A stretch of DNA of 59,039 nt from positions 1 through 59,039 of IMG/VR virus record IMGVR_UViG_3300028581_000047; one strand, given 5' to 3'. The position numbers were made by a program, and so were the translations under genes. Below are positions 7,392-34,247 of the stretch, one piece after another; the first letter of the stretch is position 1, and the number at the start of each line of letters is the position of its first letter. The DNA comes from a virus (taxonomy: Duplodnaviria; Caudoviricetes). The notes beneath the pieces are model-generated. The model did not search any database. It saw only the letters and a program-made list of their open reading frames with translations, and was not told where the DNA came from.

Positions 7392-7657
7392 AAGTTTTAA
7401 GTATTGAAGCGTGGGCAGAAGGGTCTTCTGATGAAGGGGAAGGGATTTCATGGACTTGGAACGCCTGGCACATGATTGGTTCAGTTGAGCCTGTCTCAAG
7501 TGAAGAAGAGGCTGTCAAGGCATTTGAGGATTTCTTTGGGATTCCTTTCAATACGACCGAGTATGAAGTGATTGATGACCAATACAATTACGCTTTGTGT
7601 GTAATTGCGGAGGATTACAGACCTATTTATGCCATTGAATACGGCTCGGAAAATTAA
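7388..7657 (+). CDS. small acidic hypothetical protein
   Basis: AGGAG RBS; stop codon lies in the first bases of the left inverted repeat. Confidence 0.6.
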   Translation: MKVLSIEAWAEGSSDEGEGISWTWNAWHMIGSVEPVSSEEEAVKAFEDFFGIPFNTTEYEVIDDQYNYALCVIAEDYRPIYAIEYGSEN

Positions 7658-8034
7658 CCGAACCGAGGGGTCTCAAATCGGGGTGGGGTTGTTGCAATTT
7701 GACCACACCCCTGTCTGATAATTACAAATTCAGAAAAACAGGAATCCAATTTGTCTCGCGGGGCTGGGATAGGCAACAGGGGGATGCGGGTTACAGAGGA
7801 AGTAAAACGAGACAAGCGTCTATCTATTATATATAATTATTATATTATATATATTATATATTAAAGAGGTGGGGAGTGTATCAATCTTGCAACAAGTTGT
7901 TTGTATTGCCCAACATAATCTCCTGCCACCCTCTCACGTCCTTACCTGTCCTCTGCAACCCGCATTCGGCTGGACCCCCCAAAAGTCCCGCGAGGCAATT
8001 TGAATCTTTAACTTTTGGCAAAAATTTATTACAA
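7651..8034 (+). repeat. IR-L: left copy of ~384-bp long inverted repeat (origin-like)
   Basis: Reverse complement of 33864-34247 with about a dozen differences; nearly pure AT core at 7821-7865. Confidence 0.95.
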
Positions 8035-8047
8035 CGAGAGTAACAAC

Positions 8048-8245
8048 ATGAAGAATTTGACAGTAACACTAACAAGGGATGAGTTTATCTGCTTGCTAGA
8101 CACAGTAGATTACGTTTTAAAGGACACCATGTACTACACAGATTATGAAGGTACCGACCCTGATAATCTTTACTTGCATGAAAACAACCTCAACGCATTC
8201 CAAGCTAAGGATATTTTAGAGTCGTTTGTCTGGGTAGAAGAGTAA
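8048..8245 (+). CDS. small acidic hypothetical protein
   Basis: GAGAG RBS, ATG 8048. Confidence 0.55.
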   Translation: MKNLTVTLTRDEFICLLDTVDYVLKDTMYYTDYEGTDPDNLYLHENNLNAFQAKDILESFVWVEE

Positions 8246-8311
8246 AGAGTGTTGCCCATTATGACAAGTGGGCAATGCCCTGTGCTTTACAGGAATAACT
8301 TGGAGAATGAA

Positions 8312-9079
8312 GTGAGTGAATTTTTTATAGCGATTAAAAAGTACCCAATTGGTTTGGTAGAAGTGAATGCGGTGAATGCTCGTGATTTGTGGACTGAACT
8401 TGAGGTTGGAACTACTTTCAGCAGATGGATTCAACGGAAGCTAGAGGAGTACAATTTCACGCAAGCTGTTGATTTTGTCGAAATTTCCAGTTTTGTCAAA
8501 GACGAGACTCGGTTTGGTGGGAAGCGTAAATCCATCGAGTACATCATCAGTCTCGACATGGCAAAAGAATTGGCGATGGTAGAGAGAACTGACAAAGGCA
8601 AGATTGCCAGACAGTATTTCATTGACTGTGAGCGAAGAGTGAAACTTGCGGATGAAATGGATGCTGTGCGTATCTTGGAGTTGAAGGCATACCTGGATAG
8701 GGTGCGTCGAGCTTTACTGTTGGACACGCCGCACACTTGGGAGAAGATTTACCCTGTTTCATTCTTTGAGGCGATAATGTCCTTGCATGGTCACACGTTC
8801 AACGGGAACAGTTCCACGCCGAGTTATTGTTCAAAGATAATTCGGGATTGGGTGTATCAGATTGTGTTGCCTGGTGAACTTTTGGCGGAGATAGACCGTA
8901 TTCAAGGTTCAGAAAAGAAGCATCAGTGGTTCACACAGCAGGGAGGTCGTCAAATCTTGGCTAAACAGGTCGAGAAGGTTGAGATGCTTGCGTTGGCAGC
9001 TGATTCACGGAAAGATTTTGAGCAGATGTGCAAAAAGGTATTTAAGAAACCGCTACAGCTTGGTTTGAGAGCGATGTAA
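8312..9079 (+). CDS. AntA/AntB antirepressor N-terminal domain fused to P63C-like domain
   Basis: VNARDLW..LEV...FSRWI...EYIISLDMAKELAMVERTDKGKIARQYFIDCE; C-terminal WEKIYP..FF...KKHQWFT; GTG start after GGAG. Confidence 0.8.
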   Translation: MSEFFIAIKKYPIGLVEVNAVNARDLWTELEVGTTFSRWIQRKLEEYNFTQAVDFVEISSFVKDETRFGGKRKSIEYIISLDMAKELAMVERTDKGKIARQYFIDCERRVKLADEMDAVRILELKAYLDRVRRALLLDTPHTWEKIYPVSFFEAIMSLHGHTFNGNSSTPSYCSKIIRDWVYQIVLPGELLAEIDRIQGSEKKHQWFTQQGGRQILAKQVEKVEMLALAADSRKDFEQMCKKVFKKPLQLGLRAM

Positions 9080-9187
9080 GAGTAAAGAGTTTATCCTAGG
9101 TGACAGATAGGATACGCCCTGTGCTTTTATGCAGGAAATCGGTACACTTTCGTGTATTGACATTTAACTTAAATTGGAGTAACAAAA

Positions 9188-9583
9188 ATGAGCGCATTAC
9201 AAAACCCAGATTTATCGCTTGAAAACTTGATTGACGACTTTGCTCACTTGCACATTTACCTACAAGACGCACAAAAACGTTACGATGACATGAAGAAAAA
9301 GTTGGCTGTGGTTGCAAACTCTGTGCAGTCAAAAGAACGGTTCAGGTTGCATGGGTTGAAGTACCAGCTGGAATTTAGCGAGTCACCGCAGAAAGCGGTG
9401 ATTCCTGAAGAAGTAACAAGCGGGGTGATTTATGACTTATACGGGATTGGGGCTTTCGCGCCCTCTGTTAAGTTCATCAAGGAGATTGAGAATCTCAGAA
9501 CCCGCGAAGTTGGATTTTCTGCCTCCATTCTTAAGTTGAAGTGGGATTCCAGAAGGTTGCTTAACGCTACTAAGAACTCTTAG
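9188..9583 (+). CDS. hypothetical protein
   Basis: GGAG RBS, 131 aa. Confidence 0.65.
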   Translation: MSALQNPDLSLENLIDDFAHLHIYLQDAQKRYDDMKKKLAVVANSVQSKERFRLHGLKYQLEFSESPQKAVIPEEVTSGVIYDLYGIGAFAPSVKFIKEIENLRTREVGFSASILKLKWDSRRLLNATKNS

Positions 9584-9709
9584 TTGAGCTTTAGGGAGTT
9601 CGTGGAAGCCGAAGGTATCTACTTCCTCGTACTCTTCATCCTGTAGTAAATATAGCATATTAGCTCCAAAAAGCGGTATGCTATCACATTTTAAATCGGA
9701 GCAATAAAA

Positions 9710-10237
9710 ATGAGTAAAAATGTAATTCACTTTCCTGTTAAAATAGCCACCCAAACCGAACCGAAGCAGTTCGGGAACGCTTATGGGTTAGACTTGAGTG
9801 GTAGTAAGCACGAAATTCGTAAAGACATGTTTGAGCAGTACAAAGATTACGACTTCCGCAAAGCCTTGGAACGGTTCCCTGAGCATGGGATGGGATTGCA
9901 GCGTGACAAACACTTTGTCATCAATCACAACATTACCCTAAGAGATTATGTAGGTGCGGCACACTTTGCGTTAGATTTGAAAGGTGATGTAAAAGCGCAT
10001 GACGATTTAATGGGGATTTATTTTACACTGAAGGAAGCAGGGTTCAAGAAGTACCCAGTAAAACACATCAACCCGCAGTTAGTCGGGTACGTCATAAACT
10101 TGGTGGTAGACAGGGACTCAAGACCTGGCATTGGTGTCCCGCCATTCTATTACCTTTGCGATTCTTACTTCGGGCCGTTTCAGGCAAGTGGCTGGTCAAA
10201 CAATGCCGATTATGAACGAGCTAGTATAGGTCGTTAA
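9710..10237 (+). CDS. hypothetical protein
   Basis: GGAG RBS, 175 aa. Confidence 0.65.
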   Translation: MSKNVIHFPVKIATQTEPKQFGNAYGLDLSGSKHEIRKDMFEQYKDYDFRKALERFPEHGMGLQRDKHFVINHNITLRDYVGAAHFALDLKGDVKAHDDLMGIYFTLKEAGFKKYPVKHINPQLVGYVINLVVDRDSRPGIGVPPFYYLCDSYFGPFQASGWSNNADYERASIGR

Positions 10238-10289
10238 ACAATAGCCCCACAGGTTTCACTGTGGGGTGTCTCAATCCTTGGAGATACAA

Positions 10290-10958
10290 ATGATAGAATT
10301 TAAGCGTGATGTTTATGATAGTTTGGTAGAATACGAACCCGAGTCAAGACCTGTTCGAGGAGCTAGGCTCTACACAACAATTTGTACTGATTGTGGAAAA
10401 GAGTCACGGTATCACCGTCACACGAATCTTGCTAAAAAGATTTGTACTTGCTCTACTTCAAAAATCGAGTTGTTGATTTACGGTGAGATGTCCAGAACGC
10501 TCGAAGAGTGGGCGGAGGTTGAACCTTCCATCAATGTGGGTAGTGCAAGGGTCAGGGCGAGTAATAGACGGCTAGGAAGACGAAATTGCACCGATGCTCA
10601 GGTTTTATTTGGGTATGGAAAGAAATCTCCTGCATTGCGGTTGCAAGTGTTACCGACGAATGATTCACCTGAGTGGATTAGGACGTTATCGGAAGAAATT
10701 ACCAGAAACATGATTAAGTTGCCATTGATTGAAGCGGTAGTGTTAGCCGTGAAAGTGGCATCACGGGAAAGAGATTTTGGAAAGTTAGTTCGAGAAGACC
10801 TTTCTATGTACACAAAGTCTGGCATTAAGTTCACAGACCCAGAAGGCACATCATTACCCGAGTTGTTGGAGCAGCTTGGTGATTTAGATGCCCTGAAAGA
10901 TTATTTACTGGGTGATTTGAGTCTTACAGAAGCAAAGGTAAACAGTTTTTTCATTTAA
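10290..10958 (+). CDS. putative Zn-finger/DNA-binding protein
   Basis: CxxC...CxC followed by a GExxTLEEWAE segment resembling homing-endonuclease-associated DNA-binding modules. Confidence 0.55.
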   Translation: MIEFKRDVYDSLVEYEPESRPVRGARLYTTICTDCGKESRYHRHTNLAKKICTCSTSKIELLIYGEMSRTLEEWAEVEPSINVGSARVRASNRRLGRRNCTDAQVLFGYGKKSPALRLQVLPTNDSPEWIRTLSEEITRNMIKLPLIEAVVLAVKVASRERDFGKLVREDLSMYTKSGIKFTDPEGTSLPELLEQLGDLDALKDYLLGDLSLTEAKVNSFFI

Positions 10959-10973
10959 TTTAGGGGAAGTAAG

Positions 10974-11336
10974 ATGGTTGGTGTAGTTAAAACACGGTTG
11001 AGAGAGGGGGCGGTATTGGCACTCACTAATCCGCTACATACAAAAGTGTTAGAGTATTTTGTTGTAGTGGCGTTGGCAGGTGAAAAAGGGTTAACGATTG
11101 AGGACAGTGATGGAAGGCGGTTTAGTGGTTACACACACAGCACTCTTTGGGTACACCCTCAGGTGATGTTTGAGGCGTTAGAGCCTAACCAGGTAGGATG
11201 TAACAAGGACGGCTACTTCTTGTCAACCAGAATCCACGTCAATGACAATTTGAGAATCCACTTCATGGATTGGTTAGAGAAAGAGAACGTTGAGTGTTTC
11301 AATAAGCTCCCGTTCAAACTTAGAAAAGGGGTGTGA
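10974..11336 (+). CDS. hypothetical protein
   Basis: 120-aa ORF directly upstream of primase. Confidence 0.65.
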   Translation: MVGVVKTRLREGAVLALTNPLHTKVLEYFVVVALAGEKGLTIEDSDGRRFSGYTHSTLWVHPQVMFEALEPNQVGCNKDGYFLSTRIHVNDNLRIHFMDWLEKENVECFNKLPFKLRKGV

Positions 11337-11337
11337 T

Positions 11338-14217
11338 ATGTCGGCAGCCCCAGTCCCCGTCTTTTATTACCAAACGCACGACGAGCAACACCAAACATGG
11401 AAGGTTGCGCCTTACACTGATTACGATGAAGTCATTAAGACCTGTGCTTTTCATGCTGGCGTTTATTCTTTGTCAAAAGCCCCGACGGGTGATGACGAAA
11501 GTGACTTAAAAGTCAGGTACAAAGGCAGTCTTGTTATTGATATTGACAACAAGTCAGTTGAGACAGGTAACATCAACATTGCGATTGACCAAAGTATTGT
11601 TGACGTTAGGGCAATACGAAAGTACCTTGATTTGCTTGGGGTTAACCCCAAGCAGGTTGGATTGTACATCTCAGGTGGTAAAGGTTTTCACATCATTATT
11701 CCGTTAGGTTTGATGGGTGGTATTGCTTTAAACAGCTTGCCGCACATTCATAAAAAGATGGCGATGACGATAAAAACGCGGACTGGCGTTGAAAGTATTG
11801 ATTTTTCTTTGTTTTGTAAAAGGAAGGGGAAATTACTCCGCACACCCAATCACAAGAGAGCTGGAAATGGTAATTACAAAGTTCAAATCACATGGGAAGA
11901 AATGGATGGGTTGGATGCTGAAACGTATTTCAACTTATGTCGAGAACCACGACCTGTATTTGCTCTTGAAGATCCTGAAATAGTACCTGCATTATCCGAC
12001 ATGTTTCAGGACGCATTGTTAGACGTCCGTTCTGAGGACGAACAATCTACGTTAGGTAAAACCGACCCTAAGCATTTTTTAGAGTTAGGTGATGGTGAAA
12101 TACCTAAATGTATCAAGAACTTATGCGGATACCAAAACATAAGGGAGAATGCAAGTTCTTTCAATTATGCAAAAATGGATGTGATACGGTTCTTGAAAAA
12201 TAGTAATCTTACTGCGGAAAAACAGGAAGGTGTAATTCAGGAGTTCTGTAATAACTTTCACAGTGATAGGCATGGCAGTCCGCAAGAAAGGTTGCGTGAA
12301 GTTAGGTCAGCAGAGCGGAGTTTAGAAGGTACGGGGTTTGATTGTAGTTTGGCTGCAAGGCAGTTTAGTACGAATCCCTGTACTGGATGCCCTGTCAAAG
12401 TTTCTCAAGTTGTGGAACTCAATGAGTCACACAAAATTGTTGAAATCGGTAACTCATATCATCGAGCGACAGTAAAGAAAAATGAGGACGGGGCAATTAG
12501 TAACTTCATTCTTACGCCGATTAAAGTATCGTATGAAGTATCTGAGGAAGGCTACACCACTGATCAAGTTTACACGTTTCGGGTAGATTATCTTCGGAAG
12601 GATTTACGACCTGATTTGTGTACCATCAAACTAGAAAGTTTCTTAACAAAAAGTACCTTTTCCACAGCAATGAGGCAATTGCCACAGGCATGTTGGACAG
12701 GGAGAGACGATGACGTAAGTCATTTAACAACAAGGGTGACAAGCCCAGAAAGTATGCTAGGAGTTGAAAAAGTCATGCCAGTAAAAAAACAAGGGATGTC
12801 AAAAGTCCTGGATACCAACAGGGGTATTGATGAGTGGTGTTGGGTTCAGAAGGGCTGGAGTTGGAATGGTAGATTGCCAGGTACAATGGAGTACCGAGGA
12901 CCTAGACAGTTTGGCGATACAGGTGAACAAATGACGGCTGTGTTGGATATGCGGAAAGTATTGCCCGTACCAACCCCTGCAACAGAAAAAACACTTCAGG
13001 CGTTGTTATCCAGTCGTGGGTTGGAAGAATTAGCGATTCAGCTAGGCTGGAATGCGGCTTGTTGGGTTAAACCGCAGTTACAAACAGGTGAGTATGGCGA
13101 TATGTTTCCTGTCCTGCTTGTATATGGTGATGCAGGTTCAGGTAAGTCTGAAATGACCAAGAACTTCAGCATTTTGGGTGGGAATGATGGCATCAATAAC
13201 GCCACAATCAACATCTCAAATAGCACAGGGTTTTTCTTGCAATCTGAAGCATCTTCAACAACCACCGTACCAAAATTGTTTGATGAGTTTAATCAGGCAA
13301 AGATGAAACCGCAGGATTACCTTCGGTTACGGGACGTTATTAAGTCTACAGGGACGAAGATGGCGATGGGTAAGGGTCGTGTAATCGGCTCTGGTGGTAA
13401 CTCACAAGTTGCAACAGAAATCACCGTCTGTACAGCCCCAATAGCCCTATTGGGTACAGCACAGAATCAGGAGGAAGAAATTATCCAGCGGAGTATCATC
13501 CTTTATTTAGACAAGGGCGATATTTTGAACAACCCAGATACTGCGTTCATAGAAGCTCACAGGCAGGTACTGAAGAATAAAAAGGATTTGATTCCTTACG
13601 CTCGGATGTTGTTGGAAAAAACGCTTATTCTCACTCCAGAAGAGTTGTTTGAAATGTGGGAATCCTCTGCATGGGTTAGCGATACAGTGACTGACCAACG
13701 GACAGCCAAGGCAGTACGAGTTATCCATATTGGGCTTCAGTTAGCTTATGCGGCGTTCAAGGAAGCAAAGTGCAGTAATGACACATTGAAAGGGGTGGAG
13801 CGTTTGTTGAAGGAGGGGCTACCTGCGTATATGGTGAATTCTCGGTACAACTATTTGTCGAATGACGGGCGGTCTGAGATTGACCACACACTCAATCATA
13901 TCCTGTTGATGGCGACGTTAGATAATGGACGTGGTGAGAACTATTTGCGTGAGGGGGTACATTTTACAACTGACGAAGTAGCGGTGCATCTTAAAATCAA
14001 TTCGGCATATATTTCGTTCGTAAGAGTAGCCAAAGACATGCAATGGATGCTAGAATTTACGAACGCCAAAGCGTTCATTCAGGCTTTAAGTGGGCAGAGT
14101 TACTACTTAGGAGCTGGTAAAGCGCGAGGCGTTCCAACCCCCCATGAGTGGCATACATTCAGCATTCAGGGGCTTTTAGACAAACACATCGACGTAAGAC
14201 ACCTCGGTGCGAAGTAA
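11338..14217 (+). CDS. AEP-type primase fused to P-loop helicase
   Basis: AEP motifs IDID and SGGKGFH; Cys cluster C..C...CxxC; Walker A GDAGSGKS and Walker B FDE. Confidence 0.85.
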   Translation: MSAAPVPVFYYQTHDEQHQTWKVAPYTDYDEVIKTCAFHAGVYSLSKAPTGDDESDLKVRYKGSLVIDIDNKSVETGNINIAIDQSIVDVRAIRKYLDLLGVNPKQVGLYISGGKGFHIIIPLGLMGGIALNSLPHIHKKMAMTIKTRTGVESIDFSLFCKRKGKLLRTPNHKRAGNGNYKVQITWEEMDGLDAETYFNLCREPRPVFALEDPEIVPALSDMFQDALLDVRSEDEQSTLGKTDPKHFLELGDGEIPKCIKNLCGYQNIRENASSFNYAKMDVIRFLKNSNLTAEKQEGVIQEFCNNFHSDRHGSPQERLREVRSAERSLEGTGFDCSLAARQFSTNPCTGCPVKVSQVVELNESHKIVEIGNSYHRATVKKNEDGAISNFILTPIKVSYEVSEEGYTTDQVYTFRVDYLRKDLRPDLCTIKLESFLTKSTFSTAMRQLPQACWTGRDDDVSHLTTRVTSPESMLGVEKVMPVKKQGMSKVLDTNRGIDEWCWVQKGWSWNGRLPGTMEYRGPRQFGDTGEQMTAVLDMRKVLPVPTPATEKTLQALLSSRGLEELAIQLGWNAACWVKPQLQTGEYGDMFPVLLVYGDAGSGKSEMTKNFSILGGNDGINNATINISNSTGFFLQSEASSTTTVPKLFDEFNQAKMKPQDYLRLRDVIKSTGTKMAMGKGRVIGSGGNSQVATEITVCTAPIALLGTAQNQEEEIIQRSIILYLDKGDILNNPDTAFIEAHRQVLKNKKDLIPYARMLLEKTLILTPEELFEMWESSAWVSDTVTDQRTAKAVRVIHIGLQLAYAAFKEAKCSNDTLKGVERLLKEGLPAYMVNSRYNYLSNDGRSEIDHTLNHILLMATLDNGRGENYLREGVHFTTDEVAVHLKINSAYISFVRVAKDMQWMLEFTNAKAFIQALSGQSYYLGAGKARGVPTPHEWHTFSIQGLLDKHIDVRHLGAK

Positions 14218-14236
14218 CCTTAAATTGGAGCATTAA

Positions 14237-15733: not shown

Positions 15734-15743
15734 TCTAACAAAG

Positions 15744-15775: not shown

Positions 15776-15783
15776 TGCCCCAC

Positions 15784-15900
15784 GAGTTTTTAGATTTGGA
15801 TTATAGCAGGTCTCATAAATCTAAGAGCTTAACGTTCTGCCCTTGCCTATTTGGTGCCTGCTATCACCGAGTTCGCAAGGGTTCTATATTTTCGGAGCAA
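15784..15900 (+). promoter_or_regulatory. two-hairpin RNA leader with loop-loop complementarity (copy A)
   Basis: Loop ATAGCAGG (15803-15810) is complementary to loop CCTGCTAT (15857-15864); homologous to 17940-18053. Confidence 0.6.
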
Positions 15901-16678: not shown

Positions 16679-17341
16679 ATGGCTTTAAATTTAGTAGGTT
16701 CTACAGCAGCATTCAACAACACTTCAGTAGACGAAGCATTCCCTGCGGTAGTTTCAGAAGCCCCAACAACGTTGGCGTTAGTAGCTGAACCGTCACAACG
16801 TAACAGTGTGAATTTGGCGGATTTAGAGGCAGCAGGCTTTGCTGGTTTGGTATTTGACTGGACTGCCTTCCCAATGATTTCGTTGAAGACAGATGGTCAG
16901 TTTGAGGACTCGAACGGTCAGACTTATGGCAAAGGGTTCGAGTGTAAAGTTATTGGGTCTAAAATCAAGTATGCTCACAGCTTTACAGGTTCTACAAACC
17001 CCAAAACAGATTTGATTTATTCTTATGACAAAATCACTTCTACAAGTGGTAAAGATGTAGTAAGCTTTGAGTCGGATTTGAGAGCGGCAGGGAAAGAAGT
17101 CACTTGCAAAGAGTATCTTGAAGTGATGGTCGAGTTAGTAGCTCCAGGCGAGTCGCATGATGGTGAGTTTAGATTAGTGTCAGTGTCGCCAACATCGAAA
17201 GGTAGATTCTCCAGTCTTATCTTTAAGTTGGTACAAAAAGGGATTAAGGACACAGCTGTAATCCGAATGGAAGTGGGCGAAAAGGTTCGCAACGTTGCTA
17301 ACCCCTTCTACCCTTGGAGTTTCGTGTTAGTCTCAGGCTAA
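16679..17341 (+). CDS. hypothetical replication-module protein (possible ssDNA-binding/annealing)
   Basis: 220 aa, strong RBS, beta-rich; function inferred from position only. Confidence 0.5.
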   Translation: MALNLVGSTAAFNNTSVDEAFPAVVSEAPTTLALVAEPSQRNSVNLADLEAAGFAGLVFDWTAFPMISLKTDGQFEDSNGQTYGKGFECKVIGSKIKYAHSFTGSTNPKTDLIYSYDKITSTSGKDVVSFESDLRAAGKEVTCKEYLEVMVELVAPGESHDGEFRLVSVSPTSKGRFSSLIFKLVQKGIKDTAVIRMEVGEKVRNVANPFYPWSFVLVSG

Positions 17342-17533
17342 CCCAGATGTTCACTGCCGAACAGGCAGCTTAGGAAATAATTCCTGCCCGTTCTTCCGAG
17401 GGTTAAATCGGAAGACTCCCACTGAAGGGTCATAGAGAATCTTTCATTGGTAGTTAAACTGCCAACTAACTGGAACTGGGGAGTTCCTCGCGTTAGGTGA
17501 CTTTCCCTGCGGTAATCTGTGGGGACTTATATT

Positions 17534-17609
17534 GGGTCAGTATCACAAAGGTTCGTGGAGCGTACTCATAATGCGTAGTATGTTGGTTCAAGTCCAACCT
17601 GACCCACCA
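17534..17609 (+). tRNA. tRNA with CAU anticodon (elongator Met or Ile2), encoded CCA
   Basis: Acceptor GGGTCAG/CTGACCC + A + CCA; anticodon loop CTCATAA; T arm GTTGG-TTCAAGT-CCAAC. Confidence 0.9.
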
Positions 17610-17939: not shown

Positions 17940-18053
17940 AAGTCTTTAGATTTTGCGTGTGAGAGCGTTCATAAATCTAAAAACTTAACGTTTACCCTTA
18001 TTCGGTTAGTATCTCTCACTACTTGCTTGATAAGGGTTTTTCTTTTTATGGAG
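17940..18053 (+). promoter_or_regulatory. two-hairpin RNA leader with loop-loop complementarity (copy B)
   Basis: GTGAGAG (17959-17965) is complementary to CTCTCAC (18013-18019); shares TCATAAATCTAA.A.CTTAACGTT and CCCTT/AAGGG with copy A. Confidence 0.6.
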
Positions 18054-25775: not shown

Positions 25776-25776
25776 A

Positions 25777-26460: not shown

Positions 26461-26860
26461 AGCTAAAATCAGTAAAGTTTTAAAACTTTACGCAGCTAAG
26501 AACAAGAGTTTAGATCATCGTTTCGTAGATAAAACCCAGGCAATGTCTGGGTTTGTTACAGCACCCCCTGGAGACTATATGTTGTTGACTCCTGGCGGTG
26601 CTATTTTAATTGAAGCTAAAAGCACAAACACAGGCAGGGGCTTATTATCGTTAGCACACAAAAATAAAATACAAATTGCATCACACAGAATGTGGGCAAG
26701 AGCAGGGCATCCGTCGTTGTATCTTTATATGGATTTAGAGAGTGATGTCATTGAGTGGCACCTCGGAACTAACGTTGTCGAGAAGATTAACAAACCATTA
26801 TTCATCGGCAAAAGTGCAGCGATGCTGAGTTCATTAAGTGCAATCGTGGAGGATTTATGA
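26405..26860 (+). CDS. PD-(D/E)XK nuclease, probable Holliday junction resolvase (RecU-like)
   Basis: PGDY...LIEAKST; start uncertain. Confidence 0.65.
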   Translation: MPHTRLEFYLAKNNGKALEAKISKVLKLYAAKNKSLDHRFVDKTQAMSGFVTAPPGDYMLLTPGGAILIEAKSTNTGRGLLSLAHKNKIQIASHRMWARAGHPSLYLYMDLESDVIEWHLGTNVVEKINKPLFIGKSAAMLSSLSAIVEDL

Positions 26861-26967
26861 TTGAACATTTTCTTCACAACACAGCCCATTTCTACACGTT
26901 TGTAGTTGCATGGGGTGTAGTGCTTGTACTGATGCTTATTTTTGATATTAAGAGATTAAACAAATGA
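26857..26967 (+). CDS. 36-aa membrane peptide
   Basis: Read manually; GGAGG RBS, hydrophobic stretch, ATGA overlaps. Confidence 0.45.
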   Translation: MIEHFLHNTAHFYTFVVAWGVVLVLMLIFDIKRLNK

Positions 26968-27980: not shown

Positions 27981-28171
27981 TAACGTATCCTGAGGTGTTG
28001 GAACGCATGGGTGTGACGGAAATGGCATTAGATATGGCGATCTATTCGGGTCGCCTACCAAAACCGAGAGAAACTGTTTTTGGGGTGCATCGTTGGGCAG
28101 CAAGAAAACTTGAACCACACTTGGTTAACTGGGAAGCTCAAATTAAGCGGAGAAATAAAAATGATACATAA
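27977..28171 (+). CDS. small HTH (AlpA/Xis-like) protein
   Basis: EVLERMGVT...GRLPKP...RW. Confidence 0.55.
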   Translation: MITYPEVLERMGVTEMALDMAIYSGRLPKPRETVFGVHRWAARKLEPHLVNWEAQIKRRNKNDT

Positions 28172-30269
28172 CCTTACATTAAAAAACTTCAAACAGCACA
28201 CAAACTTGGTTGTGGGGTTCACGACTGGACTTAATGTTATCACAGGTGAGAATGGTGCAGGTAAATCAACCATCCTGAAAGGCATTCTGTACGCCCTATT
28301 TGGGGCAGCGGCTGCGGGTAAAAAAGAACATTTATCTACATGGGGGACTGAGGATAAAATGGAAGTCTCGTTAACGGTAGATGTTAACGGCAAAACATTA
28401 GAAATCTTGAGGTCTTTCGATAAATCAGTGATTTACAGTGGAGACGATTTGCTTGCATCAGGTCATACGCCCTGCACTAAGTTTATTGAGCAAGAATTAG
28501 GGCTTGACTACAAGCAGTTCAAGCATTTACTCTATGCAGGTCAGGGCGAAACCCAGTCACTTTTGAGAATGGGTGCAGCAGACTTACAAAGGAAAATTGA
28601 GGTCATCACAAAGATGGACGGTCTCGACGCAATCATAACCCTAATTTCGGCTGATTTAAGCGAACTCACGGGTAAGTTATCAGGAATGGAAAGCTCACCT
28701 GATATTCCTGCTTACGAGCTACGATTAGCGGAACTTACAGAACTGGCAGAAAGCCAGCAAATTAACGTAATGGAGACAGAGAAAATGGCTACACAAACTG
28801 AGTTAATGTTGAAAAAAGAACAAGAAAAATTAGACATCGTTTCTAAAAAGTTGTCTAAAGCCAAAGCAAGTAAAGCTGCAGAACAAACTATCACAACTTC
28901 TATCGACAACACCTTGGATGAACTTGAAGTACACGCTGAAACAGAACCCAAAGAATCTGCAAAACTGCTCGCACTTAAAATTACCGCCGTTCAAGACGAT
29001 ACGGACAGCAAACTGAAAAAATTAAAACAGTTTAAGTTACAGGACAATGCAGTTGCTCAGGCTCAAGAGAATGTTGATGATGCTGAATGTAGTCTCAGCT
29101 CGTTAATGGCTGCGGAAGGTGAGTTTAAAAAGTACGCTGAACTTTTAGAAAACTACAAATTCAGTCAGTATGCGTTAGACACTGCTCAAACTAAACTACG
29201 TCAAGCAGAACAACTTGAGGTTAACTGCCCAACCTGTGAAAGACCTTTTGAGAACAGCACAGCGCATTTGGAAGCACAGGATAGAGCAGCTATTGCCGTC
29301 AAAGAAGCTCGACTCAAGTTTGGCTTGAACAAACGTGCTTTTGAGGACTTCAAAGCGAGTGTATCTCCTACCCGTGCAGAGTCTTTTGACGGCATAAAAA
29401 AACGTTGTGAACTCCATGTTCTGAGCTGTGAGGCTGCGCTGCATGCCGCAGTTGCTGCTATCCGCACTCGTGACACAAACATTGATGCCGACTCACTTGG
29501 CTTTATGATTTCTGCACAAAAAGATGCCCTAGCAGACTTTGAACGCTCACACGGCATTGCAGTATTGTGGGAGAAGAAACAAGATCAGCTTATCTCAATG
29601 CTTGCACGTTTGTCGGATGACTTGGGAGACCTTGATCCATCTGACTGTGAATGGGACGATGACGACCTTGAAGACGCAATGCAAAGTGTCAAAGAACTAC
29701 AGGAAGAATACCGTGTCAAAAGCATGGAGATGGTACAGGCTAAGTCAAACTTTCGTGAGACTACAGCTGCCCGTAATTCGGGCTGTGCAGACTTAAAACG
29801 TGGCGAAGAACTTGCTGAAAGACGTGATGCTTTAGAAAAAGATGCCGCTTTACGCAAAGACCTCCAAAGTTATTTAAGAGCGAACCGTGCAAGAATGTTA
29901 GACAATACATGGAAAGGTATCACGAGTTTGACTAGCTCCTACGTTTCAGAAATCACTGAAGGGCTTATTCGGGAGTTGGAACGTGACTTATCAGGAGAAT
30001 TTACGGTAAGAGAAGGCGAACACGTTGTACCTGTCTCCGAACTGTCAGGCGCAAGAGAAGCAATCGTTGGCTTGGGTTTGAGAATTGCGTTGGGTAAAGC
30101 GTTCTTTGGAGGTTCAAGTTTCTTGATGTTGGATGAAGTAACAGCGGCTTGTAGTGAAACAAATGCAGCGAACGTGGCGGGTACGTTACAAGGGCTAGGA
30201 ACCCAGATAATTATGGTGTCACACAGACAGGGCGATGCGTTAAATGCTGCAAACATTATTATCCTTTGA
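28161..30269 (+). CDS. SbcC/Rad50-like SMC ATPase
   Basis: GENGAGKS, coiled coil with CPTC zinc hook, LSGA signature, MLDE. Confidence 0.9.
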   Translation: MIHNLTLKNFKQHTNLVVGFTTGLNVITGENGAGKSTILKGILYALFGAAAAGKKEHLSTWGTEDKMEVSLTVDVNGKTLEILRSFDKSVIYSGDDLLASGHTPCTKFIEQELGLDYKQFKHLLYAGQGETQSLLRMGAADLQRKIEVITKMDGLDAIITLISADLSELTGKLSGMESSPDIPAYELRLAELTELAESQQINVMETEKMATQTELMLKKEQEKLDIVSKKLSKAKASKAAEQTITTSIDNTLDELEVHAETEPKESAKLLALKITAVQDDTDSKLKKLKQFKLQDNAVAQAQENVDDAECSLSSLMAAEGEFKKYAELLENYKFSQYALDTAQTKLRQAEQLEVNCPTCERPFENSTAHLEAQDRAAIAVKEARLKFGLNKRAFEDFKASVSPTRAESFDGIKKRCELHVLSCEAALHAAVAAIRTRDTNIDADSLGFMISAQKDALADFERSHGIAVLWEKKQDQLISMLARLSDDLGDLDPSDCEWDDDDLEDAMQSVKELQEEYRVKSMEMVQAKSNFRETTAARNSGCADLKRGEELAERRDALEKDAALRKDLQSYLRANRARMLDNTWKGITSLTSSYVSEITEGLIRELERDLSGEFTVREGEHVVPVSELSGAREAIVGLGLRIALGKAFFGGSSFLMLDEVTAACSETNAANVAGTLQGLGTQIIMVSHRQGDALNAANIIIL

Positions 30270-30356
30270 TTACCAACAGGTAGGTTGGATTATTGAGCTA
30301 GCCGCAGGGCTGGCTCTTCTTTTAAGTAGTAACCATTATGACAACTTGAGGTGAAT

Positions 30357-30611
30357 ATGATACATACCGAATGGCGTAGCACAACGCCAACAACTATCGA
30401 AGTTGATTTAGTTAATCAGCCTGCACACTACAAATCAGGTAAGTTTGAGTGCATTGATGTTCTTGAAGACACAATGCCAGAAGAAGCGTACCTTGGCTAT
30501 CTGCAAGGTAATGTAACGAAGTACCTCTGGCGGTGGCGGGACAAGGGCGGGGTGCAGGACTTACAAAAGGCGCAGTGGTACTTGAATAAACTCGTGGAGA
30601 AAGTGGGATGA
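30357..30611 (+). CDS. DUF3310-like (T7 gp1.7/SaV-related) protein
   Basis: VNQPAHY...ECID...GNVTKYLWRW..KGGVQDLQKAQWYL. Confidence 0.8.
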   Translation: MIHTEWRSTTPTTIEVDLVNQPAHYKSGKFECIDVLEDTMPEEAYLGYLQGNVTKYLWRWRDKGGVQDLQKAQWYLNKLVEKVG

Positions 30612-30805
30612 TGAAAATTAAATTCTGCACAGGTGACGGAAAAGGCTTCGTATGCAACAGTAGTGAGATTGAGCAATTTTATCCGCTAGACTTAACTCAT
30701 ACTATTTTAGAGTTCAATGGCGGTAGTAAAAAAGTGGTTGTAAATAATGATATGCGACAAGTAGCAAGCTCTATTTTTCACCATTGGCGGTTGATAAATG
30801 ACTGA
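30608..30805 (+). CDS. hypothetical protein
   Basis: ATGA overlap. Confidence 0.5.
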   Translation: MMKIKFCTGDGKGFVCNSSEIEQFYPLDLTHTILEFNGGSKKVVVNNDMRQVASSIFHHWRLIND

Positions 30806-31648
30806 ATCGAAGGAATTAAAAATGACAACTAAACACACGACTGCGCCTTGGATACTGCACAAATTAAGCGTTGAAATGGAACGCATTGACGGTGACGCTG
30901 AAAGATACGCCGAAATGGTCGCAAACTTAAATGAATGATGACGACGAAAGCGGTTGGGGCTATGACGGCATCGACGATGATGCAGAACATGACTTATTCA
31001 TTAGCTGCCTTTCTACTAATGAATCACAAGAACAAGATTTAGGAGTGCAAAATGATTGAAGTAAAACAAGCAGTAATCGGCAGTGAAAATGTGAGCTGGG
31101 TATCAGCGCGTGATTTGTATGTAGGGCTAGGATTGCGTAAAACCAACTGGTCAACCAACTGGTCAAGATGGTCGAAAGATAACATTGAAGAAAATCAATT
31201 TTTCGTGCAAGGTGTTGATTTTGTTAAACTCGTCACAGCGACGAGCGCAGAAATCCCCAACCCACCTAAAGATTATGCCATCACTATTCAAATGGCGACA
31301 CACTTATCAATGATGGCAAAAACAGTTAAAGCGCATGATTATCGCAACTACTTTATCGAGTGTGAAAAACAACTAAAGCAGCCGCTTTCACATCTTGAAA
31401 TCCTTGTGCAATCTGCAATGGCATTAGTCGAACATGAAAGAAAAATGAAAGCGTTATAAGACTTCCGCATCACCCGATGAGTATTACTCGATTTCAGGCT
31501 ATGCAGGTTTGCGCGGCGTGAATGTAGATGTTCACAGGGCGGGGCGGTTAGGAAAGGTGGCGACACGGTTCTCAAATGACTGAATCGAAGGAATTAAAAA
31601 TGACAACTAAACACACGACTGCACCTTGGATACTGCATAAATTAAGCG
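30796..31648. repeat. 75-bp direct repeats (30796-30870; 31574-31648) flanking a decayed AntA gene
   Basis: AAATGACTGAATCGAAGG...AAATTAAGCG, 2 mismatches. Confidence 0.9.
31052..31583 (+). pseudogene. decayed AntA/AntB-type antirepressor gene
   Basis: VSARDLY...YRNYFIECEK stops at 31459; an out-of-frame C-terminal remnant (DEYYSISGYAGLRGVNVD..RAGRLGK) follows. Confidence 0.7.
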
Positions 31649-31878
31649 GTGAGATAAGAACGCAAGACAACTTAAAAGTGATAACGGACATAAATTACAG
31701 ACTTAGGGATGGGTGTGGCGAAGCCAACGCAAAACTTATCGCCGCCGCACCTGATTTGCTTGCTGCTTTAATCGCTTGTGATGAAGCAATGGAATATATC
31801 AGCGAGTACGACATCCCCCTGACTTTGCAGCAACAGGTAAAAGACGCAATCGCTAAAGCAACGGGAGAATTAAAATGA
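31576..31878 (+). CDS. conserved phage hypothetical protein
   Basis: KHTTAPW...ANAKLIAAAPDLLAAL motif. Confidence 0.7.
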   Translation: MTESKELKMTTKHTTAPWILHKLSGEIRTQDNLKVITDINYRLRDGCGEANAKLIAAAPDLLAALIACDEAMEYISEYDIPLTLQQQVKDAIAKATGELK

Positions 31879-32522
31879 CACCTGAAAAATTGCGTGCATT
31901 GGCTATGAAGTTAATGTCAGTGCCAGCAAGTCATGATGAAGCTGTTATTGACAAATGGCTTGAACAAAACCAGCCCGAACTTGTTGTGGGGCTTAGTGAT
32001 GAGCAGATAAAGGACTTTTCGCAGCTGTACGGTCTTACAGTAACGCAGCAGGTTCGACTAAACGTGAATCTCACCAACTTCCTTAAAACCCAAACCTTCT
32101 CACAAGTCCGCGCTTTTGATGATAGTGAGTTGTCTGAAAAGTACATGACTCTTTATGATGACTATCAGTCACTTTTGGTTGATAAAGCAAACACAAGTCA
32201 GTTTGAGCCTAACTGGGATGATGTACCCGTCACAGCAAAGTATGTGCGAGTAGTTTTATCATATTTGCGTGAAGATTTTATGTCGGTTTCGAGCGATGAG
32301 GTTCTTGCACAATTTGAACGTCCGAAGCCAAAAGTTACAGTCGGACAGGTGTGGAAATTTGTTGCAGATGACCAAGATTTTACGGTTTCAGAACTTGCGG
32401 CTGTATGGGTAATTGATAAATTTGTAGGCTGTATCGGCGTTAAGAATGCTTTTGATGAATCTTGCTTTTATTCGCATGAGGATTTCCTCGCTAAATTTGA
32501 GAGAGTTTCAAGTGATGGATAA
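31875..32522 (+). CDS. hypothetical protein
   Basis: GGAG RBS, 215 aa. Confidence 0.6.
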   Translation: MTPEKLRALAMKLMSVPASHDEAVIDKWLEQNQPELVVGLSDEQIKDFSQLYGLTVTQQVRLNVNLTNFLKTQTFSQVRAFDDSELSEKYMTLYDDYQSLLVDKANTSQFEPNWDDVPVTAKYVRVVLSYLREDFMSVSSDEVLAQFERPKPKVTVGQVWKFVADDQDFTVSELAAVWVIDKFVGCIGVKNAFDESCFYSHEDFLAKFERVSSDG

Positions 32523-32712
32523 TTTTGAGGTTTACACAGCAAATGGTCAGTACCGAAAAGTGTTTATTGACTCTTGTTTCAAAGAATTAGAACGGGCAGT
32601 AGCTTTACAGGCTATTGCTCCATTAACACCCTGCCAAGCATTTGTACTAGATGCTTTACAGGACGAGTTTCAGAAGTATTTGAAGGAGGCAGCAGATGCA
32701 AATAACAGCTAA
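32515..32712 (+). CDS. hypothetical protein
   Basis: Overlapping operon arrangement. Confidence 0.5.
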   Translation: MDNFEVYTANGQYRKVFIDSCFKELERAVALQAIAPLTPCQAFVLDALQDEFQKYLKEAADANNS

Positions 32713-33085
32713 AGAATTCTCGGATAAACACAACATAAAATACGTCACGGTAAACAAACGCATCCGCGAAAGACGTATACTTTGTCGGGGCTACCAGAAA
32801 ACCTGTGCTATCGGGGGTTTAAGTCGTGTTTTTGAAGAAGCAGATTTACTCAAAGCAGTAAGTGAGTTTAAAACCAGACAGGAAGGTGAAGTAACCCTTC
32901 GGGAATACTGTGCGGAAAAAGGTATCAAGCACTCTACCCTGTACAATCATGTAAAAGATAACTATGTCAGGCAGTATGGTCTTGTTATCACTTCTGATAC
33001 GTCAGGAAGAAAACAGATTTTGTACAAAAGACAAGACTTAGACAAGTTAAGAGAACGTGCTTACCCGAGGAGGGTTATAAAATGA
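32696..33085 (+). CDS. basic protein with two HTH-like repeats
   Basis: TAKEFSDKHNIKYVTV and TLREYCAEKGIKHSTL. Confidence 0.55.
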   Translation: MQITAKEFSDKHNIKYVTVNKRIRERRILCRGYQKTCAIGGLSRVFEEADLLKAVSEFKTRQEGEVTLREYCAEKGIKHSTLYNHVKDNYVRQYGLVITSDTSGRKQILYKRQDLDKLRERAYPRRVIK

Positions 33086-33270
33086 TGAATTTACAAAACT
33101 TGAAGCAAACAATGTCTTCCCTTGAGATTGCAGGGTTGACAGGTAAAAGACATTCCGATGTTTTAGAAACTATCCGAAATGTGTTTTCTGAAGGGGGTAT
33201 TTTGGCGGCGGAATTTACCGCTGCGAGAATTGTGCGGGGAAAACTATTGATTGACGAACACATGAGGTAG
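33082..33270 (+). pseudogene. truncated Rha-family gene
   Basis: TMSSLEIAGLTGKRHSDVLETIRN N-terminus only. Confidence 0.7.
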
Positions 33271-33274
33271 AAGC

Positions 33275-33829
33275 ATGAAAGTTAAAATCAGACAAGAAGC
33301 AGGGTACGAATGGGCGTTAATGGGTATGTCCTTTTCTCACTTTGCTGAAGATCAGCCTGTCGATGATTGGTGGGCAGTGCAAAAACCCAAAGCCTTCCTC
33401 CGCGCAGAAAAATTAAAGGATAAAGACGGCGGTCATAACAAGTTTCTTGAAAGCATCCAAGTATGGGTCGAAATTAAGGCTTCTCGGGCGTTCTGGTCAG
33501 AGTTTGATACCTATAGAGCAGGTGTGACGAAGCAAAGCACTAGCACGATGCACACACTATCAAAACGCGCTCCCTTACATTCAGACTTTGAAGAGGGTAC
33601 ACCTAAAGAAGTATTCATTGATTTCCTGCGGCATTTTGCACAGCATCATCATGACATAGTTACGTTGAAGAGTGGGCTTCCTGAGGGGTTCTTGCAACGG
33701 CGAATGGTTTGTACGAACTACAAGACTATCAAAGGCATTGTAGCCCAGAGAAAAGCTCACAGGTATAAACCCTGGCGAGTGTTCATTGAGGCTCTAATGG
33801 AGCAACTGGAGCATCCTGAGTTAATGTAA
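33275..33829 (+). CDS. ThyX-like (flavin-dependent thymidylate synthase family) protein
   Basis: HNKFLESI...FWSEFDTYR...STSTMH...NYKT...QRKAHR pattern of phage Thy1-like proteins. Confidence 0.65.
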   Translation: MKVKIRQEAGYEWALMGMSFSHFAEDQPVDDWWAVQKPKAFLRAEKLKDKDGGHNKFLESIQVWVEIKASRAFWSEFDTYRAGVTKQSTSTMHTLSKRAPLHSDFEEGTPKEVFIDFLRHFAQHHHDIVTLKSGLPEGFLQRRMVCTNYKTIKGIVAQRKAHRYKPWRVFIEALMEQLEHPELM

Positions 33830-33833
33830 ACCC

Positions 33834-33865
33834 AAGACCCACTGTAAAAGGTGGGTTTTCTGTTT
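33834..33865 (+). terminator. Rho-independent terminator ending the replication module
   Basis: AAGACCCAC/GTGGGTTTT stem plus T-rich tail, immediately before IR-R. Confidence 0.55.
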
Positions 33866-34247
33866 GTAATAAATTTTTGCCAAAAGTTAAAGATTCAAAT
33901 TGTCTCGCGGGACTTTTGGGGGGTCCAGCCGAATGCGGGTTGCAGAGGACAGGTAAGGACGTGAGAGGGTGGCAGGAGATTATGTTGGGCAATTCAAACA
34001 ACTTGTTGCAAGATTGATACACTCCCCACCTCTTTAATATATAATATATATAATATAATAATTATATATAATAGACAGACGCTTGCCTCGTTTTACTTCC
34101 TCTGTAACCCGCATTCCCCTGTTGCCTATCCCAGCCCCGCGAGACAAATTGGATTCCTGTTTTTCTGAATTTGTAATTAAAAAGACAGGGTGTGGTCAAA
34201 TTGCAACAACCGCACCCATATTTGAGACCCCTCGGTTCGGTTAATTT
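33864..34247 (-). repeat. IR-R: right copy of ~384-bp long inverted repeat
   Basis: Reverse complement of 7651-8034; ends 6 bp from the rep stop codon. Confidence 0.95.

Follow-up and report, generated by a model that had tools for sequence, protein, structure and literature searches.

Why should a phage-plasmid carry two long inverted copies of the same non-coding sequence, one at each end of its replication genes? The stretch of DNA analysed here (the window, 59,039 nucleotides) covers ~66-69% of the genome of a tailed phage-plasmid of about 89 kb from lake water. The initial annotation of this locus suggested that recombination between the copies might invert the block between them, and that the element may exist as two isomers, may have twin lytic origins or may use inversion to pass from iteron-limited plasmid replication to run-away replication. 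We tentatively prefer to read the pair as an intergenic control cassette of ~390 bp, duplicated in inverted orientation and specific to the lineage (probability roughly 0.42), and neither as an architecture of the whole family nor as a demonstrated inversion switch. The features at the two borders are the following:

7388-7657, + strand: last gene to the left of IR-L, 89 aa, of no family, with its stop codon inside IR-L
7646-8039, no strand assigned: IR-L, the left copy, its outer "A" side toward the early genes and its inner "B" side toward the bracketed segment
8040-33858, + strand: bracketed segment, with all genes on the + strand
8048-9079, + strand: first genes to the right of IR-L, encoding a 65-aa protein (8048-8245) and an AntA/P63C protein (8249-9079)
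33834-33859, + strand: terminator-like hairpin and U-run (z -3.3) at the end of the + strand operon, abutting the B side of IR-R
33859-34252, no strand assigned: IR-R, reverse complement of IR-L, its B side toward the segment and its A side toward rep
34254-35324, - strand: Rep3-type initiator with WH1 and WH2 domains, its stop codon 2 nt outside IR-R
35417-35526, + strand: five 22-bp iterons, four exact and one matching at 19/22
35678-36313, + strand: ParA-type partition ATPase

A repeat search of the whole 59-kb window returned a single inverted pair, IR-L and IR-R, with a length of 394 nt, 95% complementarity and a separation of 25,819 nt. Within the record, BLAST aligned 7646-8039 with 33864-34247 at 97% (E 3e-184), self-BLAST placed the core of the pair (7651-8034 against 34247-33864) at 96.9% over 385 columns, and global alignment counted 12 differences inside 7651-8034 (7679, 7680, 7686, 7708 as a deletion, 7716 as an insertion, 7717, 7718, 7783, 7812, 7822, 7904 and 7995). 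These methods agree with the pair as first described, at ~97% with about a dozen differences. The differences are unevenly distributed, 7 in the outer 70 nt versus 5 in the inner 314 nt (Fisher p 0.0019), and the longest blocks identical between the copies measure 90, 81, 64 and 39 nt. From 11 nt ahead of the 89-aa gene's stop codon, IR-L extends to within 9 nt of the ATG at 8048, filling the gap between this start codon and a tightly packed early gene run, and IR-R is placed between the hairpin at 33834-33859 and the rep stop codon (34254-34256). The distance from IR-R to the first perfect iteron (35417) was measured at about 1.15 kb, which bears out the position at module borders, ~1.2 kb from the iterons, that had been recognized at the outset. 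An assembly artefact, already judged unlikely then, can be excluded, since gene order and strand across both junctions are those of the only close relative and a pseudo-ORF across the right junction is on record in 10 contigs (ENA and JGI assemblies).

Besides the 65-aa gene and the AntA/P63C antirepressor-like gene, the bracketed segment contains genes for a primase, an SNF2 helicase, a tRNA-Met, Bro-N proteins, an ATP ligase, PolA, an RNase T-type exonuclease, SbcD and SbcC, followed by a second AntA gene and a PHROG 6721 gene. Of the SbcCD, resolvase and helicase initially listed for the window, SbcD/SbcC and the SNF2 helicase were thus recovered, and the Holliday-junction resolvase of the segment is a weak match only. 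The gene at 33275-33829 had been called thyX-like, a label that does not hold, as it matches no Pfam family, belongs to PHROG 6721 (function unknown) and has a best PDB sequence match with an E of 0.27. A lone CRISPR-type repeat also lies within the segment.

The search of related phage-plasmids for the same pair, proposed together with the inversion hypothesis, returned nothing: an inverted repeat of at least 60 nt was present in 0 of 10 genomes (G001, SHOU24 and 8 near-complete IMG/VR relatives). G001, the closest relative (70 kb), has Rep3 and ParA and lacks the long inverted repeat, and nhmmer found no homologue of the element in it. The segment has the same orientation in this repeat-less relative (18 of 18 plus-strand ORF matches on the same strand), and on this comparison the assembled orientation is the ancestral one. 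GC skew, another check that had been proposed, changes sign at about 34 kb and is uninformative because the coding strand also switches there.

That the pair is missing from 10 of 10 relatives, and that self-BLAST shows further recent duplications in the genome, one a tandem of 781 nt (99.2%) and one a pair of 99 nt (91%), is consistent with a functionless one-off duplication or module-boundary "linker", copied once by illegitimate or template-switch recombination. Such a duplication would persist since inverted copies cannot delete the essential block, and its sole effect would be to offer homology for module exchange among co-infecting strains. We regard this as unlikely, given that the copy differences are not evenly spread and that the elaborate internal symmetry and extreme A/T core of the copies resemble a working element and not a random spacer. 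Neither copy is coding, their ORFs being short and unconserved, and neither matches an Rfam family; their internal features are as follows:

7682-7709, + strand: outer GC-rich hairpin of IR-L (fold of 7652-7745), just past the stop codon of the gene at 7388-7657
7744-7800, + strand: arm A of IR-L, with box 1 (CAATTTGTCTCGCGGGGCT) and box 2 (ATGCGGGTTACAGAGGA), their GCGGG cores about 29 nt apart
7817-7871, no strand assigned: A/T core of IR-L, A+T content 90% or higher, including 42 uninterrupted nt of A/T
7949-8005, - strand: arm B of IR-L, matching arm A in inverted orientation and again carrying box 1 and box 2
33893-33949, + strand: arm B of IR-R
34027-34080, no strand assigned: A/T core of IR-R
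34098-34154, - strand: arm A of IR-R
34174-34217, - strand: outer hairpin of IR-R, from a fold (hairpin 34188-34217, then UGUCUUUUUAAUU)

The two arms of ~57 nt are arranged around a pure A/T tract of 42-55 nt as an internal quasi-palindrome of 260 nt, with a 77-nt insert (7872-7948) separating the A/T core from arm B in IR-L. Each box motif occurs 4 times in the window, only in the IR copies, and this count was reached by 0 of 100 shuffles. The IR-L core is the least stable 50-mer of the window at -43.4 kcal/mol (mean -66.9, sd 3.7) and the IR-R core the second least stable at -44.8 kcal/mol, both with z about 6; third comes the A/T stretch of the Rep3 origin (35355-35404), which serves as an internal control for the ranking. 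Folded as single-stranded DNA, 7735-8015 reaches -48 kcal/mol (z -5.4), a value that none of 200 shuffles attained. Behind rep, the GC hairpin of IR-R followed by a U-run makes an intrinsic-terminator-like 3' end, and this U-run is lost in IR-L, where the hairpin tail reads UGUCUGAUAAUU. The outer 70 nt with 7 of the 12 copy differences take in this hairpin together with its tail, where three of the seven (7716-7718) are located. Hexamers resembling a -10 element are found on both strands of the IR-L core, and a sigma-70-like site (GAGACA-17 nt-TATAAT, 10/12) points toward the segment, with a weaker -35 (GAGGCA) in IR-R, the total of such sites being 3 against 2.5 expected by chance. A second iteron cluster can act as a control locus of Rep3-type replicons, as at P1 incA. 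The best match of either copy to the 22-bp iteron is 13/22, a background level reached at 107 sites across the window.

The best reading of this anatomy is a duplicated terminator-plus-promoter/operator with origin-like physical properties. The outer hairpin would end the converging gene, 7388-7657 at the left and rep at the right, with the U-run of a good terminator only at the right. The arms with their GCGGG boxes enclose an A/T core that carries -10-like hexamers and melts more readily than other sites in the window. Since the B sides face inward, IR-L would supply the only non-coding space in which the 65-aa/antirepressor/replication operon could start, and an operon leader of ~200 nt would be part of IR-L. 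The same putative promoter and leader in IR-R would be aimed at the hairpin at 33834-33859 and would consequently yield a short RNA at most. On this reading, one and the same element, able to bind protein and to unwind easily, would insulate the replication block on either side. Its activity as promoter and operator, the protein that binds it and any RNA made from it are what we infer from this sequence layout. A pure promoter reading leaves the retention of IR-R unexplained, as there is no gene for IR-R to drive.

A non-coding, palindromic, intergenic element in two copies that is absent from relatives would also be expected of a MITE-like miniature mobile element inserted twice, which we consider extremely improbable. 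The arms of the palindrome lie inside the element, at distances of about 100 nt and 35 nt from where the homology stops, and neither terminal inverted repeats nor a target-site duplication could be seen on inspection of the two copies; nor was a transposase found. Further copies were not found in phage or plasmid collections. Near-identical contigs aside, IMG/VR gave only 11 unrelated, chance-level 17-mer matches and JGI metagenome contigs 0 occurrences of the two-box pattern, and the same pattern occurred 0 times in the 185,579 species genomes searched.

Equally, inverted boxes on both sides of an A/T core are what a textbook replication origin looks like. The copies might be twin lytic origins or an origin-plus-barrier pair, with a phage initiator or primase on the GCGGG boxes and the A/T core as the unwinding element; either both copies would fire, or an initiator-bound copy would stall forks and set off concatemer synthesis that depends on recombination, the scheme put forward for SPP1 oriL/oriR. 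Both cores melt more easily than the A/T stretch of the Rep3 origin itself, four inverted boxes surround each core and occur nowhere else in the window, the core is a strong quasi-palindrome, and the segment has a primase, a helicase, PolA, a ligase, an exonuclease, a resolvase-like protein and SbcCD. However, the element is absent from all relatives examined and, for that reason, cannot be the conserved lytic origin of the family, and an alternative candidate is offered by the tandem-repeat arrays near contig ends, which the window itself has in common with at least 5 of the 8 distant relatives. On balance, we hold an origin function to be improbable.

In the SPP1 model, a second origin copy with its origin-binding protein is proposed to block forks, whereupon a Holliday-junction resolvase starts sigma replication and theta gives way to concatemeric replication; the sites themselves are defined there by binding of the known initiator G38P (PMC3485210). 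The element described here resembles SPP1 in its two dispersed copies of a cis-element and in a phage-encoded exonuclease and Holliday-junction resolvase (PMC3485210), the latter a weak match here, and the same boxes lie at both sites beside an A/T-rich, unwinding-type stretch. It differs from SPP1 in being a pair of 390-bp inverted duplicates that is absent from relatives and whose binder is only putative. The oriS of herpes simplex virus lies inside the inverted "c" repeats, chloroplasts likewise carry inverted repeats, and the segments isomerise by homologous recombination. Here, too, an A/T-centred palindromic element, putatively an origin or control element, is duplicated in inverted repeats around a unique segment, but the herpes and chloroplast repeats are kilobases long, identical and conserved in their families, whereas the present copies are 0.39 kb, 97% identical and lineage-specific.

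Variation between sister strains bears on both the control cassette and the one-off duplication. In the contigs compared at IR-R, all listed with a longest length of 28,725, the B half of IR-R is about 99% identical, its pseudo-ORF being changed at 1 of 79 codons, the gene flanking IR-R on the segment side has 12 of 184 amino acids changed (93.5% identical), and Rep is 74% identical, with a tail at 31%. Around IR-L, the upstream gene has 8 of 89 residues changed, and on the downstream side neither the 65-aa gene nor the AntA gene varies among all the contigs on record; ParA differs at 3 of 211 residues. The near-invariance of the B half suggests constraint or homogenisation, yet it could reflect recent recombinational spread and not selection, since the AntA and 65-aa proteins are invariant and ParA has so few changes. 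The sharp breaks in mosaicism at IR-R, and at IR-L too, are as a functionless linker between modules would predict. At site 7904, the right-junction copy of the sister strain carries the left-copy base.

This last pattern is what crossover or gene conversion between the copies predicts, but ancestral polymorphism explains it equally well. A functional inversion device, in which the copies recombine, the 26-kb block flips and two isomers result, is very unlikely in our estimation. The geometry suits it, with long inverted repeats dividing the replicon and an asymmetric origin beside IR-R, and with the cassettes laid out as they are, the block would stay expressed either way round; from the Rep3 origin 1.15 kb from one copy, theta replication could turn into double-rolling-circle replication and possibly a 2-micron-like amplification. 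The yeast 2-micron plasmid has 599-bp inverted repeats with FRT sites, the Flp recombinase and an origin beside one repeat. Copy-number amplification in plasmids of the 2-micron family requires Flp (PMC13439956). Both replicons are split by two long inverted repeats with a theta-type origin near one of them (here about 1.15 kb away). Unlike the 2-micron plasmid, the present system is a tailed phage-plasmid (about 89 kb) with no recombinase gene found in the available sequence, its copies are 97% and not 100% identical, and any inverted isomers of it are putative.

Six-frame searches for tyrosine and serine recombinases (PF00589, PF00239) gave 0 matches in the 59-kb window and in the 70-kb G001, with matches in 14/14 and 12/14 genomes as positive controls, and neither type was present among 40 ORFs scanned with Pfam, in line with the original impression that none is visible in the window. 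RecT, ERF and RecA were likewise absent from the window and G001 in six-frame searches, and the lack of all these functions, in a window that is ~66-69% of the genome, speaks against inversion. In the C segment of P1 (Cin) and the G segment of Mu (Gin), a neighbouring serine invertase switches tail fibres; in Halobacterium phage phiH, ISH1.8 copies flank the L segment in an IS-based immunity switch. These are also phage genome segments between inverted repeats, but here there is no invertase (PF00239, 0 matches) and there are no IS features, and the segment consists of 26 kb of replication genes. A Cin/Gin/Hin-type invertible segment was rejected on the lack of a Resolvase-family match and on this gene content.

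Inversion is further disfavoured by the 12 differences retained between the copies, by the lack of an iteron-like site in either of them and by the assembled orientation, which is that of the repeat-less relative. Several assemblies, the window included, run through the repeats, where a 50:50 mix of isomers would probably break them, and the proteins flanking both copies have in common a longest-contig value of 89,402, although such tables are no proof of one contig. A single orientation in long reads, combined with relatives lacking the duplicate, had been named as speaking against inversion; the half concerning relatives is what was found, the pair being absent in 10 of 10. The idea of a 2-micron-like amplification is not supported.

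For the control cassette, a broader parallel comes from distant relatives. In SHOU24 (near 35,034 and 71,863) and G015 (near 3,769 and 80,859), the two least stable sites are TA-rich and have a common flanking motif of about 50 nt, which is found in direct orientation at 78-84% identity. As in the IR pair, a motif is common to the two least stable sites of the genome, although the IR pair is far longer (385 nt), more similar (97%) and inverted. Repeated control elements would fit as a theme common to this phage-plasmid and these relatives. Homologous recombination between IR-L and IR-R is physically possible, judging from their long identical blocks, and if the copies did recombine, the inverted isomer would be expected to be transcriptionally self-sufficient.

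The window holds a single inverted repeat pair, at 7646-8039 (left copy, IR-L) and 33859-34252 (right copy, IR-R), which extends over 394 nt at 95% identity, with a core of 385 columns at 96.9%, and whose copies lie 25,819 nt apart. Inspection of the sequence around both copies confirmed the coordinates and module borders given in the initial annotation. An assembly artefact is ruled out, since both junctions match the closest relative (G001) in gene order and strand, and since a pseudo-ORF, a 79-codon open frame leading from IR-R into its inner flank, is found on 10 contigs from two data sources, with three sequence variants on 6, 3 and 1 contigs. The gene map around the pair is as follows.

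Gene map of the window
397 to 7657, + strand: small early genes, including ArdA and Bro-N/KilA-N genes
8048 to 33829, + strand: 26-kb replication block with antirepressor-like genes, primase, SNF2 helicase, ligase and PolA, and further with an RNase T-type exonuclease, a weak Holliday-junction resolvase match, SbcD and SbcC; an HTH-like protein is encoded at 32696-33085, and the last gene, at 33275-33829, belongs to PHROG 6721
34254-35324, - strand: Rep3 initiator (rep)
35417-35526: five 22-bp iterons
35678-36313: ParA
After ParA to the window end, - strand: structural genes

This is a freshwater, siphovirus-like phage of a little described type that combines T5-like replication genes with Rep3 and ParA. 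The window is a complete IMG/VR virus record (59,039 bp, completeness rating 69%), and since identical proteins are found on contigs as long as 89,402 bp, a full genome of about 89 kb is probable. The 11 public sequencing runs listed, with no RNA run among them, are all contig-level metagenomes from lake water; 9 of the 11 contain 0.90-0.98 of the words from a 10-kb test stretch, and two carry the mark of a possible source. Three perfect 42-bp tandem repeats occupy the window end (58913-59039) and are probably the reason the assembly stops there. Tandem arrays at or near contig ends were also seen in at least five of eight distant relatives (G007, G011, G012, G014, and G015); they are a family trait that could mark a packaging site or an origin.

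Other repeats occur within the early genes and the replication block. A head-to-tail tandem duplication of 781 nt (4173-4952 and 4939-5718, 99.2%) doubles a Bro-N/KilA-N gene, and two direct repeats (30788-30885 and 31566-31664, 99 nt, 91%; 15785-15836 and 17941-17992, 52 nt, 75%) span the starts of paralogous small genes together with the sequence upstream of them. Also, a lone type I-F-like CRISPR repeat (scoring 45.1 bits for Rfam CRISPR-DR4, whose gathering score is 35) lies at 17349-17376, directly 3' of the gene at 16679-17341 and about 160 nt ahead of a tRNA-Met(CAT) gene (17534-17609). It may be a solitary repeat or an RNA anti-CRISPR decoy, and a search for hosts among 185,579 species genomes turned up no exact match to it.

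Each copy of the inverted repeat has the same four-part organization, read here from its outer edge (A side) to its inner edge (B side), which faces the replication block.

Anatomy of the repeat
Part 1, outer A side: GC-rich hairpin that immediately follows the stop codon of the converging gene (7388-7657 on the left, rep on the right)
Part 2: arm A, ~57 nt, carrying two boxes with GCGGG cores ~29 nt apart
Part 3: A/T core, 54-55 nt, at least 90% A+T, including a 42-nt pure A/T run
Part 4, inner B side: a 77-nt spacer followed by arm B, an inverted counterpart of arm A

The two box motifs occur four times each in the window, always in the repeat arms, a number reached in none of 100 shuffles. 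As single-stranded DNA, the 281-nt core folds into one long imperfect hairpin (-48 kcal/mol, z -5.4) that none of 200 shuffles matches. When all 50-mers of the window were ranked by nearest-neighbour duplex energy, the two A/T cores were the least stable (-43.4 and -44.8 kcal/mol, compared with a mean of -66.9, sd 3.7). The third least stable site is the A/T stretch beside the Rep3 iterons (-51.5 kcal/mol), an internal control indicating that this measure detects a real origin.

The two copies have not diverged evenly. Within 7651-8034 they differ at 12 positions, seven of which fall in the outer 70 nt, comprising the hairpin and its tail, and five in the inner 314 nt (Fisher p 0.0019). In IR-R the hairpin is followed by UGUCUUUUUAAUU, giving it the look of an intrinsic terminator, and in IR-L this U-run is lost; three of the outer changes (7716-7718) lie in this tail. 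The inner part retains 98.4% identity, with uninterrupted identical blocks of 90, 81, 64 and 39 nt. That the pair is a functionless duplication, or serves as a mere stretch of homology or 'linker', is an explanation we regard as doubtful.

Several other roles were considered for the element. It is non-coding, its ORFs all being short and none conserved as a gene. A structured sRNA is not supported, because RNA read outward from the B half is no more stably folded than shuffled sequence (z 0.27) and the A half is only modest (z -2.2); no Rfam family lies in or near the repeat, the gathering-threshold run giving only the tRNA and the CRISPR repeat elsewhere and the E-value run a single chance match (E 3.1). 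Binding by Rep was rejected as well, neither copy having an iteron-like site (best match 13/22). One-mismatch DnaA boxes number 26 in the window versus 17 expected, with none in the repeats, and no Xer/dif-type site with three or fewer mismatches was found.

Our reading of the pair is that an intergenic control cassette has undergone an inverted, lineage-specific duplication, and that in each cassette a terminator would be joined to a promoter/operator with an easily melted core. This reading draws on position more than on the promoter scan. IR-L takes up the only gap from which the operon of the 65-aa, antirepressor and replication genes could start; its A/T core contains a 10-of-12 sigma-70-like site directed at that operon, such sites being no commoner there than by chance. 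IR-R would act as a good terminator ending rep, and as its copy of the putative promoter and leader is aimed at a hairpin at 33834-33859, it could yield an RNA of at most ~200 nt. With the B sides turned inward and the ribosome site and ATG placed beyond the repeat, the operon of an inverted isomer would again follow an identical promoter and leader, and the layout is predicted to tolerate inversion.

The cassette anatomy is also the look of a replication origin, and the second copy might act as an origin or fork barrier in an arrangement of the twin-origin type, which we consider unlikely. In the SPP1 model, a second origin copy acts as a fork barrier (PMC3485210), and the two cassettes have a fair mechanistic parallel there. 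Cumulative GC skew, whose computation had been suggested for this locus, does peak near 34 kb; the coding strand switches at the same place, and we therefore dropped the skew as evidence for an origin.

The initial annotation had proposed that inversion between the copies might amplify the element as in the yeast 2-micron plasmid, and had seen no site-specific recombinase. The latter observation held in six-frame searches, with Phage_integrase and Resolvase families in neither of two records (the window and G001) and the controls detected. The RecT, ERF and RecA families were likewise found in 0 of these 2 records with working controls, and a Pfam scan of 40 ORFs gave no member of the recombination families sought; the searches of the window cover about two-thirds of the genome. 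The amplification idea fails because its defining recombinase was not found in the available sequence, and we rate it as very improbable. A scheme that dispenses with such an enzyme would take the cassettes as the twin origin or fork trap of a T5-like-replicating phage with a captured Rep3/ParA module, where recombination or fork arrest between the inverted copies would flip or break the 26-kb block and so switch iteron-limited plasmid replication to concatemer-producing lytic replication; this too we judge improbable. On the initial interpretation, our assessment leans against a dedicated inversion device.

Searches with the repeat element gave no match in phage or plasmid collections, 11 unrelated single 17-mer matches in IMG/VR, and, with nhmmer, nothing in G001 or in L025, an unrelated phage that was the one hit of a metagenome scan with the PHROG 6721 protein. 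The two-box pattern was absent from JGI metagenome contigs and from 185,579 species genomes; the scope of all these searches possibly leaves out the nearest strains. A mobile miniature element is an origin for the pair to which we give hardly any credence.

Single-protein queries with Rep or PolA found no relatives, and G001 (70,383 bp, PolA 65% identical, carrying Rep3 and ParA) is the sole close relative reached. It has no inverted repeat, and other genes intervene there between the PHROG 6721 gene and rep. The Vibrio phage SHOU24 (PolA 31% identical) has no long inverted repeat, and among 18 further PolA relatives reached in IMG/VR, the eight near-complete ones fetched (78-87 kb) contain none of at least 60 nt. 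The search of relatives for the same pair, as put forward in the initial annotation, thus found it in 0 of 10 examined. As for segment orientation, the bracketed block of G001 is oriented as in the window, 18 of 18 plus-strand ORF matches lying on the same strand relative to the flanks. Judged from these comparisons of sequence, the repeat pair characterizes this species-level lineage, in which the assembled orientation is ancestral.

The Rep3-iteron-ParA module (34254-36313) is confined to the window lineage and G001, with the Rep protein in 0 of the 18 more distant PolA relatives. Its nearest PLSDB match is 43% identical and comes from a Methyloprofundus plasmid, others being from methanotroph, Halomonas and Pseudomonas plasmids.

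A 17-nt string common to IR-L and the early control region of G001 (15/17 identical, with a degenerate pattern fitting both exactly) occurs once in the window, which is chance level, and the first 820 nt of G001 contain it three times; we treat it as a weak lead and not as homology. Ahead of the early genes of G001 is a 1-kb non-coding region (L016 1-1100) in which three stretches are A/T-rich, a 16-bp GTACCC...GGGTAC palindrome occurs three times, and the least stable site is surrounded by a 26-nt inverted pair; a related string, GTGTACGATGT...ACCC, is present at 359-381 of the window. In SHOU24 the two least stable duplex sites (L020 34960-35300 and L021 31790-32130) are both (TA)n runs, 36.8 kb apart, each followed by a common motif of ~50 nt (~54 nt) in direct orientation, and G015 from IMG/VR has a similar pattern of two least stable TA-rich sites with a common ~50-nt motif, again direct. 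Because these sites share a motif within each phage, paired control elements may be a recurring theme in this group.

Sister strains were compared through protein tables, which gave eight protein variants, all with a longest listed contig of 28,725 bp. The tables also list contigs of 89,402, 89,263 and 28,073 bp.

Differences of the sister-strain variants from the window
Pseudo-ORF covering the IR-R B half: 1 of 79 codons changed
PHROG 6721 gene beside IR-R: 12 of 184 residues changed
Rep, on the other side of IR-R: 74% identical, tail 31% identical
ParA: 3 of 211 residues changed (98.6% identical)
Genes 9188, 9710 and 32696: 8/131, 6/175 and 5/129 changes

A sister strain carries a divergent and shorter Rep allele beside a nearly unchanged ParA. 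The lone pseudo-ORF change is the left-copy base of site 7904, in a copy attached to the right-hand inner flank, and could reflect ancestral polymorphism, gene conversion or a crossover. On the left, the gene before IR-L has 8/89 changes in one variant, and the 65-aa and AntA genes after it do not vary on any contig on record. The cassettes are therefore located at mosaic breakpoints between strains, and they count among the conserved blocks themselves. The 28,725-bp value, listed for variants of genes at both segment ends as well as for Rep and ParA, matches the span between the IR-L outer edge (7646) and ~36,370, just past parA; it would fit either block orientation and does not decide between isomers.

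The feature is a real, structured, strain-conserved and lineage-specific element. On present evidence, the pair illustrates clearly how a control cassette at two module borders can be duplicated recently and be conserved between strains. These module borders coincide with mosaic breakpoints, a rep allele having been swapped next to a nearly invariant cassette, and the locus is a useful case for how phage modules are insulated and exchanged. The change of phage-plasmids from copy-controlled plasmid to lytic replication is poorly understood. If the pair works as an origin or switch, it would provide a sequence-defined handle on this change and a counterpart in bacteria to the replicons with inverted repeats known from yeast and herpesviruses.
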